Part shown: positions 7,977 to 21,851 of the stretch, piece by piece | Layout of the letters: every line of letters starts with the position of its first letter | Numbering within the stretch: the stretch's first letter is position 1 | Virus record (IMG/VR): IMGVR_UViG_3300032061_000001 | Location: 1 to 64,000 of that record | Length of the DNA: 64,000 bases | Source of the DNA: a virus | Reading direction: 5' to 3' (one strand) | Notes under the pieces: generated by a model | The model's database searches: none | Told to the model about the DNA's origin: nothing | Seen by the model: only the letters and a program-made list of their open reading frames with translations | Program-made: the position numbers and the translations under genes

Positions 7977-8228
7977 TTAAAAATGGACAGGACCGTCTGT
8001 ATATCCCGTTATCCCATAACCGCCAATAATGACAATATGGGTATTCCAATTAATTCTTTCATCATAGATATATGGTTTTATTTGCACCGATTCATTTGAG
8101 AATTCCACGCCAAATTTTTTAAGAGATCCCCGCAGATAATAAATTAGATCATTTTTTGTATCGAATTCTTGAACTGTTCCCATCGATTCAGTTAATGATC
8201 CCTTATGGTCTCTATATTTAAACATCAT
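7977..8228 (-). CDS. hypothetical phage protein
   Basis: YRDHKGSLTESM..YDERINWNTHIV..GYTDG pattern of a small phage protein family. Confidence 0.6.
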   Translation of the reverse strand: MMFKYRDHKGSLTESMGTVQEFDTKNDLIYYLRGSLKKFGVEFSNESVQIKPYIYDERINWNTHIVIIGGYGITGYTDGPVHF

Positions 8229-8694
8229 CCCCCTTATAAAGTTCTAATAATGGCGGCATATTGCCAGTTTCATATGCTTTTTCAATTTGTGGTTGAATAA
8301 AGTCACTTACTATTTGCCCATTGGGAAGAACGATATTCATTCCAAATTCATGTTCGAAAGAAGCCAATCCTATTTCGACCGCTTCCAGTTTCGCCTTGAT
8401 GTTCAGGGCAAGCGCTCTCCATTTTTGTTTTACAGATTGATCATAAGCATCTTGGCTTGATTTATCTGCCCTCTTTCTGCCAGTTTCCGTTTTTGTGAAT
8501 TCCGGAGACTTTCTATCGGGCATGGGTAGCAAGAACCTTATATGCTTATTTTTCATTTGAAATGCGATCATAGCGCTCTTTTCCTGCCAACCATATAAGA
8601 ATCCGGTGGCCCCATATTTTTGAAGAATAGATTCGATTTCCGAACGAGATCTATCGCTGGTAACATTCGTATTTACTGCATATTTTCCAGGCAT
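8218..8694 (-). CDS. conserved hypothetical phage protein
   Basis: YAxxTxV..SRxEIE..QKWRALALxIKAKLEAVExG pattern. Confidence 0.7.
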   Translation of the reverse strand: MPGKYAVNTNVTSDRSRSEIESILQKYGATGFLYGWQEKSAMIAFQMKNKHIRFLLPMPDRKSPEFTKTETGRKRADKSSQDAYDQSVKQKWRALALNIKAKLEAVEIGLASFEHEFGMNIVLPNGQIVSDFIQPQIEKAYETGNMPPLLELYKGDDV

Positions 8695-8942
8695 TATTCC
8701 CCTTTTGATACGGCTAATCCGGCAATGATAAATCCTACCATCACATTCAGAAAATACAACCCGGCAAAGATCATGGCCGCAATGAAACCAAGATGAAATT
8801 CAGGCGATGATTGTTCGAATAATGCCGATATCTGTTTGGAGTTCTGCCATGCCGAAATGATCATCATTCCGAAAACGACAGATATTGTCGCTAAAATGAA
8901 AAGGACAATTCCCTTTGCTGCTTGTTTTAATCCATTTGTCAT
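8694..8942 (-). CDS. small membrane protein (2 TM)
   Basis: Two hydrophobic stretches. Confidence 0.55.
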   Translation of the reverse strand: MTNGLKQAAKGIVLFILATISVVFGMMIISAWQNSKQISALFEQSSPEFHLGFIAAMIFAGLYFLNVMVGFIIAGLAVSKGE

Positions 8943-9727
8943 TTATCTTCTCCCGGTTTGGTTAATAGATCAATCCCTACAACTTTCTTGATAGATTCTT
9001 TCCATTTTATTAATGGATCATCTTTAAATCGTTCATAAAGAGCTTTTATATTGCTGTCAGTCTGGCAATCAAGGACGAATTCAAGTCGGTCCCAATCTTT
9101 GAAACCGGGATTATTTATCTTGATCCGCTGTGTCGGGAAATTCATCTTCCCGAGCCAGATTGAATCGGTAACCCAATTCCGGCAATCTTCAACGACCATA
9201 TCGATATGATCATCCAGCATAGGTTCGCATGAAATACTTGTTTCAAAACCTAACCCCGCAGCCAATTTTAGGCACCGAATCCGCTCAGAATAATTGGGCG
9301 CATTCGGTTCCCAAAAGCTTAAAACCTCATCGTTGGAAGATCCGATTGAAAATCTGAATAATATTTTGTCTTTATAGTGTCTAAAGGTATAACAAATCTC
9401 ATCAATAACTTCAATTTCCGGCTTCGAAACAATCAGAATTCTATTCCCGGGATAGATCAGTTTCCATAAGTGTTCAATTATTTCTGAAAGGAATTCTTTA
9501 TGGAGATCATGAGTTGTCGGGAACATGATTGTTCCCTTTCGTTTTCCGATCTTTTTTCCAAGGGCCTTATTATTTAAAAAGGGATGCCCCCAATTTTCAA
9601 TGTCTATTTTCTTATGTCTTATAGACATCGATTTTGCATAGCAATATAGACAGGAGTTGCGGCATCCTAACTGAATATTAGAATTGGATCCGGCCCATTC
9701 TTTGGTACCGAATATTTTATTTGCCAT
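8939..9727 (-). CDS. radical-SAM-like protein (DUF5131 / spore photoproduct lyase-like)
   Basis: GCRNSCLYCYA CxxxCxxC, WEPNAP, SCEPML. Confidence 0.75.
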   Translation of the reverse strand: MANKIFGTKEWAGSNSNIQLGCRNSCLYCYAKSMSIRHKKIDIENWGHPFLNNKALGKKIGKRKGTIMFPTTHDLHKEFLSEIIEHLWKLIYPGNRILIVSKPEIEVIDEICYTFRHYKDKILFRFSIGSSNDEVLSFWEPNAPNYSERIRCLKLAAGLGFETSISCEPMLDDHIDMVVEDCRNWVTDSIWLGKMNFPTQRIKINNPGFKDWDRLEFVLDCQTDSNIKALYERFKDDPLIKWKESIKKVVGIDLLTKPGEDK

Positions 9728-9979: not shown

Positions 9980-11065
9980 TTATCCTTTAATTTGTAGATA
10001 AGCCTGTTCCCTATCGCATTGGTAATTGACGTCTTCAATCAGCTGGGGAATCTTAAATTCCATCAACCGTTTTACACCCGGGATAATCACATCAACCAAA
10101 ACATCTACATTCTTCGTTATTTCTAGTGTTGTTTGGAAGTTTTTTGCCATGCGATCCGATAGTTCTTGTGCATTTTTCAGATCCTGGATCTCTTTTTCTT
10201 TCTTTGAGAGATACCCATTAGTACCGGTATACTCATCCAGCAATTTGTTTATATCGGACTTTTGCATGGATATTCTATGGAAGCTTTTATTAAGTTCAAT
10301 GATGGCATTTGTTATTTTTTCTTTAATTGCAGTCGTATCCCCGAATAAATGCTCATATTGTCTAAGCTTTTCCAGATCATCGTTGTGAAGTCTGATCTGT
10401 TTTTCGATGCGATCTTTGGTAGAATCGAGACGCGAATTGATCTTCTTGATGGTTTCGGTATATGCAGTTTTGAGGTAAAGGAGTTTGTCTGATTCGGTAA
10501 TCATCTTATTATTTTTTTTGTTGAAATGTTCTTTTATGGTCCGTATCGATATCCAAGTTACCCATCCTAAAAAAATGGACAAACTAATAGGGAATAATAA
10601 ATACGAAACGATACCTTCCATATATTTTAATGCAACAAACATGGCGACCGGAGAAATTGCTAATACGGATATATCATCATAGCTGATGTTTATTTGGAAT
10701 GACTTTGATTTCTTCAGCCATTTCTCATATGACTCTTTTATTTTTGATTCAATGCCGGCTGCATCTGAACATTCCATGATGAGTTCATCAAATGATTCGA
10801 TTTGATTTTCCATTTTTAATTTGGGTTGTTTATCGTCCAATGAATAATGTGTTCCATACGAAGAAAATCCTCTATATTTCCCATTAGATTTTACAATCGT
10901 TTCCTCCGAACTTTTTAGGCCATATGAATAATTACATAAGTTATTGTCATATGGACTACGCGTTTTACACCAACAATGCTCACAATCATAAATAGACCGC
11001 GAGCATGAATGACATGATGCATGGTAAATAACTTCTTGACGCGGATATCCATTATTATAAGCCAT
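9980..11065 (-). CDS. membrane protein with Cys-rich N-terminus, 2 TM and long coiled coil
   Basis: CHSC..CEHCWC, hydrophobic pair, heptad-rich C-terminus; RBS AAAAGGAG. Confidence 0.65.
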   Translation of the reverse strand: MAYNNGYPRQEVIYHASCHSCSRSIYDCEHCWCKTRSPYDNNLCNYSYGLKSSEETIVKSNGKYRGFSSYGTHYSLDDKQPKLKMENQIESFDELIMECSDAAGIESKIKESYEKWLKKSKSFQINISYDDISVLAISPVAMFVALKYMEGIVSYLLFPISLSIFLGWVTWISIRTIKEHFNKKNNKMITESDKLLYLKTAYTETIKKINSRLDSTKDRIEKQIRLHNDDLEKLRQYEHLFGDTTAIKEKITNAIIELNKSFHRISMQKSDINKLLDEYTGTNGYLSKKEKEIQDLKNAQELSDRMAKNFQTTLEITKNVDVLVDVIIPGVKRLMEFKIPQLIEDVNYQCDREQAYLQIKG

Positions 11066-11094
11066 TTATTTACTCCTTTTAATCGTTTCTCTTT

Positions 11095-11123
11095 TTTATA
11101 CTTTATTAACTTATAGCTGTCAA
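11095..11123 (-). promoter_or_regulatory. sigma70 promoter with shared operator-like spacer
   Basis: TTGACA-gctataagttaataaag-TATAAA (17 nt spacer). Confidence 0.7.
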
Positions 11124-11212
11124 TCTTTTTCTTCTCTTAAAAATATAAATTAAAAATGGCATCAATTAAGACTGCAAGATAACTATTTATAGCTTCCTAT
11201 GGGTTTATTGAT

Positions 11213-11260
11213 GAAATCTAATTATTAGCTAATAGTTAGCCAATAATAAACTAATTATTA
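11213..11260. repeat. 11-bp period repeat array (TATTAGCTAAT-like)
   Basis: tattagctaat/agttagccaat/aataaactaat; related to the array at 21323-21380. Confidence 0.65.
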
Positions 11261-11379
11261 AAATATGATCTTGACTATCTTAGCCGCGCCGTCATTAGCA
11301 TTGCGTCGTTAGATCAATTTACTTTTCTTCTACTTCGAACCTATAAAAGCTTTTAATATAACTAGATTTCCTTTTCCGC

Positions 11380-11408
11380 TTGATATTCTTTTGCAATATC
11401 TTTACGAT
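11380..11408 (+). promoter_or_regulatory. sigma70 promoter overlapped by palindrome GATATT-N7-AATATC
   Basis: TTGATA-17nt-TACGAT upstream of an AGGAG RBS and ATG 11439. Confidence 0.6.
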
Positions 11409-11438
11409 AATATCTAAACAACCTAAATAGGAGACAAA

Positions 11439-12182
11439 ATGAGCATATTTAAACGATTTATGGCATGGTTTAGAAATGAAACTAAGGTTGCGCAGCTTGA
11501 AACTAAACTAATCAATTTGCAAACGAAAACAAATGAGGATTATGCGGTATTTCATAAAAAAGTTAATTCTTTGGAAATGGATCTGGAAGAAAAAATCAAG
11601 GCTACCAAAAAGGCTGGAGAAAATACGGATCATGGAATTGACATTTGGACAAAAGAATTCAGGAAAGAATTCGAAAAACTAAGAGAGCGGATTGGTAAAA
11701 ATGAACTTATGCATGTCGAAGTCAATAAGAGCGCCCAAGATACATATGCTCGTTCGATGGCATCAATAACGGCTCAAGTATCTTCTTTTTCTCAATATGC
11801 GCTGGAATTAATAGAGCGAATAGTTAGCGCTAAATATTCACCGGTTTCCGAACAACAGGCAAATCTTGAATTTGGGAAGGAAGACGATAAAGCGGATTAT
11901 GGGGAAGTTGATGCATTTTTAGATGAATTAGCCAACGCAGAAGATGATGATACTCCCCCTATGTTTAGAATTAAAATAAACGGTGAACAGAACACTTGGA
12001 TCGGTAAAAAGATATTCTACGATGACATCGTTCAAAATGTTTTCGGACCTTCCTGGGAACAAAACAACGTTAAATACTCAGTATTCTGGAAGGATGCAAA
12101 GAAAGCACATAGTAGCGAGATCTTTAAGGGAGAATCAGTAAGCGTGAAAGATGGTCTTGAATTTTTCGTGTTGCTGAGATAG
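11439..12182 (+). CDS. coiled-coil protein with C-terminal multi-ubiquitin (beta-grasp, Multi_ubiq-like) domain
   Basis: aa 175-247 FRIKINGEQ..IFYDDIVQNVF..VKYSVFWK..EIFKGESVSVKDGLEFFV match the bacterial multiubiquitin pattern. Confidence 0.75.
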   Translation: MSIFKRFMAWFRNETKVAQLETKLINLQTKTNEDYAVFHKKVNSLEMDLEEKIKATKKAGENTDHGIDIWTKEFRKEFEKLRERIGKNELMHVEVNKSAQDTYARSMASITAQVSSFSQYALELIERIVSAKYSPVSEQQANLEFGKEDDKADYGEVDAFLDELANAEDDDTPPMFRIKINGEQNTWIGKKIFYDDIVQNVFGPSWEQNNVKYSVFWKDAKKAHSSEIFKGESVSVKDGLEFFVLLR

Positions 12183-12222
12183 TAACTGGCGGCTAAGATG
12201 TTTAATATCTTGTGGAGGGAAT

Positions 12223-12579
12223 ATGGCAGACGTTAAAAGCATCGCTCTGGTGATCTTGAGAAAAAGAAGAATGGACGTTAATACTGATACCATTGATGAG
12301 ATGATTACCGAACTTGAATCATGCATGAAAGGAAGGAAGGTGCAGATCCTTTTGATCCTGGAGAAAGAAATCAGGTTGACAGCTCAAGAGTTGGCCAATG
12401 CAATGAAGATTCTTGATACTAACCTGGCTGTTTTAACCAACCGTCTAAAAAGGAATCTATTGATCGATAAATATGATGAATCGGATTTCAAATCAGGGGA
12501 TGACCCGATTAATTTGAAACCGATTTATCATTCAATTACCGATCTCGGAAGGCAGCTGATCACCGATTTAGGGAAATAG
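12223..12579 (+). CDS. winged-helix (MarR-like) DNA-binding protein
   Basis: LTAQELANAM..LAVLTNRLKRNLLIDK..SITDLGRQL. Confidence 0.7.
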   Translation: MADVKSIALVILRKRRMDVNTDTIDEMITELESCMKGRKVQILLILEKEIRLTAQELANAMKILDTNLAVLTNRLKRNLLIDKYDESDFKSGDDPINLKPIYHSITDLGRQLITDLGK

Positions 12580-12584
12580 ACGCC

Positions 12585-12893
12585 TTATTTTACGATAACC
12601 TTCTTTATCTCTTCTTTGGAGAATTTCCTTATTTCATCCGGGGTTGGTAGATGAATATAGAATGACTGTTTTGGGGCTATTTTTTCAACCTTCTCGGAAA
12701 GCATATCAATTTGGGATTGGAGATCCGCTTTGGATTTAATTTCTTCAAGCTCCGGTTTCGTCCCAAAATGAAATGCTTTTACCTCATTACCCAATACTTC
12801 CTGAGTGTTCATCACATTCTCAATTTGTTTCAGATAGTCCGCCATTGGTGTGAATTCACCGAATGTACCATTTCTAAACTCTGTCATTCCCAT
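12585..12893 (-). CDS. hypothetical protein
   Basis: ORF with AGGAGG RBS. Confidence 0.55.
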   Translation of the reverse strand: MGMTEFRNGTFGEFTPMADYLKQIENVMNTQEVLGNEVKAFHFGTKPELEEIKSKADLQSQIDMLSEKVEKIAPKQSFYIHLPTPDEIRKFSKEEIKKVIVK

Positions 12894-21207: not shown

Positions 21208-21322
21208 AATATATTTTATTATTATACTGTTAACAAAAAGTCAAATGTCTATAAAAAATAAATAGCACAATCACTGCCATCTATTATATCGTAGATGATT
21301 ACAGACAGTTTTCCATTTTAAA

Positions 21323-21380
21323 TATTAGCTAATTATTAGCTAATTATTAGCTAACTATTAACCAATAATTGCCTAATATT
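21323..21380. repeat. five tandem 11-bp units, the best ones containing palindrome ATTAGCTAAT
   Basis: tattagctaat tattagctaat tattagctaac tattaaccaat aattgcctaat. Confidence 0.8.
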
Positions 21381-21851
21381 TAAACTCAGTTCAACGAGCC
21401 GATCAGGCAATATTACTCGATACATAGAAATATCCCTTTTTAAGTTTTCTGATTTTTCGATTAATTGTTCGATGGCGGGTTGATTGTATTCCCAATACTG
21501 ATCCCAGAAATGAGATCTTTTCATAGCATGGTAATCGTTCAAAATGGACCGGATTACGACTTTTGGGTTCCCGATCTTGTTGTACCTCAATCTATTTTTC
21601 ATCCAAATTAGGTGGTATTTTGAATCGAATTCAACGTTCTTTTTCAATTCTTCTTGAATCATTCGTTTGACTTCCGCTCTTTCGATCCCGGTACCATCTT
21701 CGATTGATTTGTAGGTATAGGGATAAATACCGCTTTCGGTTACCGCTTTGTTTGTGAGCAAATGAATAAAAATCAGCTTACCTTCCGGGGTGAATTCTTG
21801 AAAATCTGGGTCATCCCATATACAGACATGGATAGGTCTTTGTTTCGCCAT
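21351..21851 (-). CDS. replisome-organiser-like N-terminal wHTH protein
   Basis: RPIHVCIWDDPDFQEFTPEGKLIFIHLLTN..SGIY. Confidence 0.7.
   Translation of the reverse strand: MAKQRPIHVCIWDDPDFQEFTPEGKLIFIHLLTNKAVTESGIYPYTYKSIEDGTGIERAEVKRMIQEELKKNVEFDSKYHLIWMKNRLRYNKIGNPKVVIRSILNDYHAMKRSHFWDQYWEYNQPAIEQLIEKSENLKRDISMYRVILPDRLVELSLNIRQLLVNS

Follow-up and report, generated by a model that had tools for sequence, protein, structure and literature searches.

A tail-less BubA-type ubiquitin-like domain on a phage helical protein, a possible decoy of bacterial Bub/Bil systems

The DNA analyzed here is a stretch of 64,000 nucleotides (the window), comprising positions 1-64,000 of the linear, 73,894-bp IMG/VR virus record IMGVR_UViG_3300032061_000001, for which CheckV estimates a completeness of about 64%. 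Nearly all genes of this record are located on the minus strand (only 8 of the 105 non-overlapping open reading frames (ORFs) chosen in the 73.9-kb record are found on the plus strand). Two neighboring plus-strand ORFs, flanked by minus-strand genes on both sides, form the cassette considered in this study. Gene 1 (11439-12182; 247 amino acids (aa); P0001) codes for a helical stalk fused to a ubiquitin-like (Ubl) domain that resembles BubA, the Ubl of Type II Bub systems. Gene 2 (12223-12579; 118 aa) is situated 40 bp 3' of gene 1 and codes for a winged helix-turn-helix protein of the MarR/ArsR/HTH_34-like type. Both genes possess a Shine-Dalgarno sequence of their own, AGGAG at 11429-11433 in the case of gene 1 and GGAGGG 5' of position 12223 in the case of gene 2. 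Gene 2 is followed by the convergent gene 12585-12893, at a distance of 5 bp from its stop codon; terminator prediction gave no result. The base composition of gene 1 is that of the phage, and no paralogue of this gene was found in the record. A preliminary description of this DNA had recognized a counter-oriented two-gene cassette, which is borne out by the plus-strand ORF pair among minus-strand genes, and had interpreted gene 1 as a candidate decoy of bacterial ubiquitination defence.

Gene 1 is composed of four parts. Its first codons (11439-11483) specify an N-terminal amphipathic helix rich in basic and aromatic residues, MSIFKRFMAWFRNET, in which F4 and K5 are near-invariant among the relatives of gene 1 and in which residues 3-13 are strongly amphipathic (hydrophobic moment 0.71). 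A conserved helical module, ERIGKNELMHVEV.KSAQDTYARSM..., is encoded at 11667-11843 and contains the invariant residues R84, E89 and M107 as well as the best heptad pattern of the protein. It is followed by an acidic linker (11862-11960; residues 142-174) that carries a net charge of -11 and is predicted to be disordered, and by a C-terminal beta-grasp domain of the Multi_ubiq/BubA type (11961-12179; residues 175-247). The protein terminates with ...GLEFFVLLR, followed by TAG and TAA; the final LLR stands after the last strand, and the TQT[N/D]KS tail of related proteins is missing. An AlphaFold2 (AF2) model built with a 42-sequence alignment reached a mean predicted local distance difference test (pLDDT) score of 89, thereby superseding a single-sequence model with a pLDDT of 52. 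In this model, a single helix of about 140 residues spans residues 2-141, the pLDDT is low over the linker (about residues 142-174), and the C-terminal domain (about residues 175-246) is folded with a pLDDT of about 95 in the order beta-beta-beta-alpha-beta-beta-beta-beta. The regularity of the heptads is moderate along most of the helix and perfect at about residues 100-135.

These results agree with the amphipathic N-terminus, the acidic linker and the FFVLLR-stop end that had been read from the sequence before. The coiled coil that had also been proposed finds its counterpart in the helix over residues 2-141, with the strongest heptads at 100-135, whereas oligomerization of this helix can only be inferred. 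Searches of PHROGs, PADLOC and NCBIfam returned nothing for genes 1 and 2 beyond coiled-coil noise (ZorA, SMC-like), and no effector domain of gene 1 was detected in library scans. A resemblance of the gene 1 N-terminus to capsid-cargo polyproteins of the phage was considered and rejected, as the alignment scores did not exceed those of shuffled controls.

The identity of the C-terminal domain was addressed by sequence profiles and by structural comparison. The Pfam family PF14452 (Multi_ubiq; cut-off 24.5 bits) matches residues 176-244 at a borderline level, with 22.3 bits for the whole protein and 24.6 bits in a six-frame search. Membership in this family, borderline when gene 1 is taken alone, is backed by its homologues, by a hidden Markov model (HMM) built from BubA only, which scores 48 bits over HMM positions 6-85 of 91, and by a profile of the gene 1 family. 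Among solved structures, this profile gave a single significant match, to the C-terminal beta-grasp of PDB entry 9cd2 (E 7.6e-11), which is the “E. coli ZDHYS365 multi-ubiquitin domain protein,” the Type II Bub Ubl (BubA) investigated by Ye et al. (10.1101/2024.11.21.623953) and Gong et al. (10.1101/2024.11.21.623966). With the gene 1 model as query, Foldseek likewise ranked 9cd2 first (E 5.6e-6). It was also the top match in the VIA comparison, with a Z score of 11.1 and a root mean square deviation of 2.6 A over 74 residues when residues 174-247 of the model were placed on residues 143-217 of the chain. Other Bub/Bil Ubls (9d5b, 8u38, 9d5a, 9d59 and 9ea8, the last being a BubA fragment in complex with the BubCD E1) reached Z scores of 7.7-9.4, and generic ubiquitin-like domains scored at most 7.6. 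The beta-grasp fold of gene 1 is therefore nearest to the solved Bub/Bil Ubls by model, Foldseek and VIA alike.

Since profile, Foldseek and VIA searches all rank 9cd2 first, the domain is of the BubA type and equivalent to its E1-binding C-terminal domain. The C-terminal 73 residues of gene 1 are thus a homologue of the E1-binding C-terminal beta-grasp of BubA from Type II Bub operons (operons formerly called 6E.2/DUF6527), namely of the third beta-grasp of that protein, with which they share both the fold and the motif I.IN....W....I.Y..IV...FG....N..Y.V......G..V.V..G..F.V. The assignment of this region to the bacterial multiubiquitin type, and the beta-grasp fold on which it depended, are confirmed; a “multi-ubiquitin” array is not present, as gene 1 holds a single Ubl domain. 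Gene 1 differs from BubA in exhibiting one beta-grasp instead of three, in lacking the TQT[N/D]KS tail and in lacking adjoining BubBD and BubE genes. It is, in addition, phage-borne and carries a 140-residue helix and an acidic linker ahead of the domain. A relation to tail-assembly Ubls was dropped, since BFVD yielded no significant viral match (the best matches, to ubiquitin-like proteins of giant viruses and to a tail assembly protein of the lambda type, had E >=0.007) and the gene is located outside the virion module.

The end of the domain sets gene 1 apart from its nearest relatives in bacteria. All of the nearest Multi_ubiq proteins (P0014-P0130; 117 of 117) end in serine and exhibit a near-invariant ...GMIFNVTQT[N/D]KS terminus. 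BubA of E. coli ZDHYS365 (9cd2) ends with ...GMIFYVTQTDKS at residue 222, and the same six-residue tail is found in four operon-linked BubAs; the operon-linked examples came from the Type II Bub operon L002 and from the viral or proviral loci L003-L006. Gene 1 stops at position 85 of the 91 positions of the BubA-only HMM, with just three unrelated residues (LLR) afterwards. Conjugation of the E. coli BubA by BubBD is ATP-dependent, while Type I BubA uses a glycine exposed through cleavage; the C-terminus of the Ubl is the site of adenylation, and the Bub E1s are homodimers (Ye et al. 10.1101/2024.11.21.623953). The conserved TQT[N/D]KS-COOH end with which a conjugatable BubA reaches the E1 adenylation site is accordingly not available in gene 1.

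The preliminary description had based its argument on the statement that conjugation needs an exposed C-terminal glycine. Glycine is not the rule in the clade nearest to gene 1, because 117 of 117 proteins carry TQT[N/D]KS ends and the E. coli BubA with this end is conjugated (Ye et al. 10.1101/2024.11.21.623953). The lack of a C-terminal glycine is hence unfit as a test for non-conjugatable Ubls in this clade, whose reactive end is ...T[N/D]KS and not Gly-Gly. The proposal that gene 1 is probably not conjugatable nevertheless finds support, as the entire six-residue tail is gone and the remaining end is unsuited to conjugation as it is known in the family. Judged from these alignments, the informative feature of gene 1 is the loss of the whole six-residue tail rather than a missing glycine.

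A HMMER scan of 1.84 billion representatives identified 12 relatives of gene 1. The N-terminal architecture of gene 1 is present in 10 of the 12, which results in a family of about 11 members, all of them metagenomic singletons (Logan, ENA, JGI); two relatives are located on contigs of 119.6 kb (P0003) and 84.8 kb (P0009). Common to the family are M.WFK at the N-terminus, a helix whose length varies, the conserved module ER.GKNELM...VFKKAQDTYSR.M with invariant R84, E89 and M107, and usually a Multi_ubiq head. PF14452 is matched by 8 of the 11 members and exceeded above its cut-off in three of them (P0006, P0008 and P0009). These three have also kept a BubA-like tail of equal length, SLTDNA in P0006, SDTSNA in P0008 and YKTLNS in P0009. 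P0002 and P0003, on the other hand, stop three residues past the last strand, like gene 1, and form one group with it (support 92/90; long branches) at an identity of 25-27%. The short tail is not a sequencing accident, since it recurs in these two diverged relatives with which gene 1 is grouped. One further protein, P0010 (metagenomic, NCBI source), combines an N-terminal M.WLK and the GKNELM helical module with a C-terminal domain that is unrelated, unassigned and about 130 aa long, and the helical module of the family may, as suggested by this combination, serve as a carrier for interchangeable heads.

The helical module was absent from the representative bacterial genomes, IMG/VR contigs and isolated phages that were searched. 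Profile searches of viral, metagenome and genome contigs, with family alignments and with P0008 and P0006 alone, likewise revealed no further member of the helical family, and tblastn searches of isolated phages with gene 1, P0009, P0003 and a typical BubA gave no match. A match to LPD39 was obtained for a single family member (E 0.0012) and was not used.

The overall architecture of gene 1, with a helix over residues 2-141 (moderate to strong heptads), a linker and one beta-grasp, resembles that of the CC-Ubl1 proteins, which consist of a coiled coil and one beta-grasp and were described in five Type II Bil and three Bub operons; one of two tested CC-Ubl1 proteins is a homodimer (Gong et al. 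10.1101/2024.11.21.623966). The likeness refers to the described architecture and not to the sequence of the helical parts. The genes of CC-Ubl1 proteins belong to E1/E2 operons, and conjugation of these proteins is presumed, whereas gene 1 belongs to no Bil/Bub operon and adjoins the winged-helix gene and unrelated phage genes. Because CC-Ubl1 proteins had already been described in Bil/Bub operons, the architecture of gene 1 alone is not new. What is new is the fusion of the domain to the conserved helical module, the clean disappearance of the tail from a single branch, with other members of the family retaining it, and the winged-helix partner. The earlier statement that no example of such a protein is described consequently needs to be qualified: a literature search retrieved no paper on a phage-encoded mimic of BubA or BilA or on an anti-Bub or anti-Bil protein, while the architecture is known from bacteria (Gong et al. 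10.1101/2024.11.21.623966).

Two more distant parallels can be drawn. An orphan Multi_ubiq protein of 84 aa, encoded at 7989-8243 in each of the IMG/VR records L007 and L008, is also virus-borne and has no conjugation enzymes nearby. It is, however, a small stand-alone Ubl with a full-length tail (...FSLAITGSA), as opposed to gene 1, a fusion of 247 aa whose tail is truncated and whose partner is a winged-helix protein. The gene of this orphan immediately follows a capsid-like gene and a LAGLIDADG-like ORF on a GC-rich viral contig, with no adjoining E1 gene. Integral Ubl domains of eukaryotes (USP4/USP11/USP15, tubulin cofactor E (TBCE)) resemble gene 1 in presenting a beta-grasp within a larger protein for non-covalent binding, and they reach VIA Z scores of 6.7-7.6. 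This is an analogy of principle without a specific sequence relation, and the scores lie below those of the Bub/Bil Ubls.

Gene 1 also differs from operon-encoded Ubls in its surroundings. In Type II Bub operons, the Ubl gene is accompanied by a DUF6791-ThiF gene, which encodes an E2-E1 fusion, and by a DUF6527 peptidase gene. ThiF, Prok-JAB, Prok-E2_E, DUF6791 and DUF6527 gave no match in the 73.9-kb record, which represents about 64% of the genome. The absence of E1, E2 and JAB genes that had been noted for the window thus extends to the whole record. A reference operon in a metagenome-assembled genome of Pyrinomonadaceae (L002, 5713-9820) contains a BubA of 83 aa ending with SDTGQS, a DUF6791-ThiF fusion and a DUF6527 protein. 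Upstream of it, and divergent, genes for an M78/IrrE-like peptidase, a small protein and a sigma factor of the ECF type were observed. Type II Bub operons that are complete, with Multi_ubiq, a ThiF fusion and DUF6527, were found in three viral or proviral IMG/VR records (L003, L005 and L006), one of which has inverted terminal repeats. Their presence in these records shows that Bub systems travel on mobile elements. In every operon examined, the gene for the Ubl immediately adjoins that for the E1 fusion.

The cassette is preceded by an AT-rich (27% GC), divergent intergenic region of 373 bp (11066-11438) that separates gene 1 from the leftward gene 9980-11065. It contains an array of 11-bp palindromes (CTAATTATTAG, CTAATAGTTAG and CTAATTATTAA) at 11-bp spacing (11218-11261), a candidate operator array of which a second copy is located at 21318-21383, with the Rha/ANT antirepressor block on one side and the replication genes on the other. 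The two arrays can be aligned over about 46 bp. The exact pattern CTAATNNTTAG occurs seven times in the window, compared to 0.46 expected occurrences, and none of 100 shuffled sequences attained this number; all seven matches fall inside the two arrays. When a 15-mer of the palindrome array was scanned, only single, chance-like matches were obtained. The two arrays are candidate operators or iterons for one DNA-binding protein, possibly the winged helix of gene 2. A candidate sigma-70-like promoter (11380-11408, plus strand; TTGATA-17-TACGAT, 9 of 12 positions) encloses the inverted repeat GATATT..AATATC.

As regards the palindrome and the promoter of the preliminary description, a genuine palindrome does lie upstream, while only half of the statement on a promoter stands: the TTGATA-17-TACGAT site exists, but similar sites are no more common in the window than in shuffled sequences (6 found, 6.7 expected), which makes it weak evidence. 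The prediction that gene 2 encodes a winged-helix protein proved correct, in view of a weak MarR match (E 0.02) and template modelling scores of 0.62-0.66 to ArsR/HTH_34/MarR clusters of the ESM Atlas. No close relative of gene 2 was found in IMG/VR.

Apart from the cassette, genes were recognized for structural proteins (tail sheath, major head protein), for DNA-modifying and DNA-unwinding enzymes (DNA methyltransferases, a DnaB-type helicase, a superfamily-2 helicase), for a Rha/ANT antirepressor and for a lytic transglycosylase of the SLT type. In view of these genes, the record is that of a contractile-tailed (myovirus-like) phage carrying some temperate-type regulatory genes. No tyrosine integrase was found in the 73.9-kb record. 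The sole sequencing run found to contain the stretch is a DNA run with the label salt marsh metagenome, and no RNA run was among the sequencing runs containing it. The matches of the major capsid protein (MCP) and of DnaB are remote and mixed, and no host can be inferred from them.

Radical-SAM, DnaJ-domain, DUF1064 and KTSC proteins are encoded in the neighborhood of the cassette, together with small genes without family assignment; the cassette lies in an accessory region outside the virion module. The divergent neighbor (9980-11065, minus strand) codes for a protein of 361 aa without family assignment whose N-terminus is rich in Cys, which contains hydrophobic segments and whose C-terminal half is a long coiled coil. 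The radical-SAM protein (8939-9727, minus strand; Pfam E 6.6e-8) shows weak PADLOC matches to the candidate defence components PDC-M41B and PDC-M30B (E ~1e-5 to 1e-4). A blastn search of isolated phages with the cassette region gave no match. A search for synteny via the neighboring DnaJ-domain gene retrieved 80 loci, most of which share the J domain alone, and revealed neither synteny nor a member of the gene 1 family.

It is proposed that gene 1, through the loss of its tail and the pairing of its heads, acts as a pseudo-substrate or competitor of a Bub/Bil-type system of the host, a reading to which a probability of roughly 0.4 is assigned. In this model, the C-terminus of gene 1, being deprived of the tail, would be unable to reach the adenylation site of the E1, so that neither adenylation nor conjugation would take place, and the protein would act non-covalently as a pseudo-substrate. 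The helices of gene 1 would pair two Ubl heads, which would match the homodimeric nature of Bub E1s. The paired heads might then occupy the Ubl sites of a dimeric host E1 (BubBD or BubCD), or engage the BubE peptidase or host Ubl assemblies, and tagging during infection would be blocked. Gene 2 would be co-transcribed with gene 1 and would probably regulate the cassette through the upstream palindrome arrays. A more specific version is put forward tentatively and may well be incorrect. According to it, gene 1 would mimic BubA as a dimer without tails, would plug the Ubl sites of the E1 of a host Bub/Bil system (or of the peptidase or Ubl assemblies of the host), and would have arisen when a coiled-coil Ubl that could be conjugated lost its tail; no paper on a viral inhibitor of this kind was found.

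Several observations weigh against a role as decoy. The long single helix is the prediction for a monomer, and the heptads are no more than moderate outside residues 100-135. P0006, P0008 and P0009 retain a BubA-like tail (..T.N[A/S]) and may be conjugatable; the ancestral role of the family may consequently not be inhibition. No Bub/Bil target system can be placed in a host, given the remote and mixed MCP and DnaB matches. With about 64% of the genome in the record, an E1 or E2 of the phage itself could lie in the missing part. Finally, the layout, with its counter orientation, winged-helix gene and palindromes recurring beside the antirepressor and replication region, would fit a regulatory or lysogeny-type module unrelated to Bub.

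The last point leads to an explanation that is held possible, if rather doubtful, in which gene 2 would be a putative repressor-like protein on the palindromes and the Ubl head of the co-expressed gene 1 a protein-binding adaptor without a link to Bub or Bil. Gene 1 might then be, for example, a membrane-associated exclusion protein or a scaffolding protein. The counter-oriented cassette with its divergent 373-bp intergenic region, the winged helix of gene 2 and the occurrence of CTAATTATTAG arrays at two places only, in front of gene 1 and at 21318-21383 beside the genes for the Rha/ANT antirepressor and replication, are all consistent with this scenario, as are the amphipathic N-terminus of gene 1 and the occurrence of the same helical module with another C-terminal domain in P0010. 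Integral, non-conjugated Ubl domains are, moreover, common as interaction modules, and those of USP4/USP15 and TBCE match the model with Z scores of about 7.3-7.6. This scenario is at odds with the specific proximity of the head to BubA (Z 11.1 in contrast to at most 7.6 for generic domains; profile E 7.6e-11) and with the failure to find an integrase in the record. Action as a decoy and membership in a regulatory cassette are compatible and could both hold at once.

It is improbable that gene 1 is itself conjugated, via an unusual C-terminus or after processing, by an E1 and E2 (with or without a peptidase) encoded in the missing third of the genome or by hijacked host enzymes. The incompleteness of the record, the complete Type II Bub operons in L003, L005 and L006 and the BubA-like tails of P0006, P0008 and P0009 would allow for such a system; its expected signature, a Ubl gene abutting the E1 fusion as in every operon examined, is replaced by a winged-helix gene and unrelated small genes. 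The tail of gene 1 also falls short by three residues and has none of the residues of the invariant T..KS, and there is no Gly, Ser or Ala cleavage context near its end. Similarly low odds are given to a defence or superinfection-exclusion protein whose BubA-like head would serve as bait to sense an anti-Ubl factor or peptidase of an incoming phage. A function of this kind would be without precedent, and neither an effector domain (the PADLOC matches being coiled-coil noise) nor an integrase was detected, even though the moron-like layout with its own regulator, the temperate lifestyle suggested by the antirepressor gene and the amphipathic N-terminus with its long helix would suit it. That gene 1 is a decaying or truncated gene without function, as the missing tail and the singleton status of the family members might indicate, is very improbable: its frame of 247 codons is intact, has the composition of the phage and is preceded by a good Shine-Dalgarno sequence, the AF2 model shows the beta-grasp folded with high confidence, and the same short end is found in P0002 and P0003 despite their divergence.

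It is their genomic context that ties Bub operons, whose biological role has yet to be settled, to anti-phage immunity (Ye et al. 10.1101/2024.11.21.623953; Gong et al. 10.1101/2024.11.21.623966). Taken as a decoy, gene 1 would represent the type of counter-measure that is expected if Bub or Bil acts against phages, namely a phage copy of the E1-binding Ubl domain from which the conjugation tail has been removed. If this reading is true, an action of Bub systems against phages would be directly attested, and gene 1 would constitute a ready-made probe or inhibitor for Bub/Bil enzymes.

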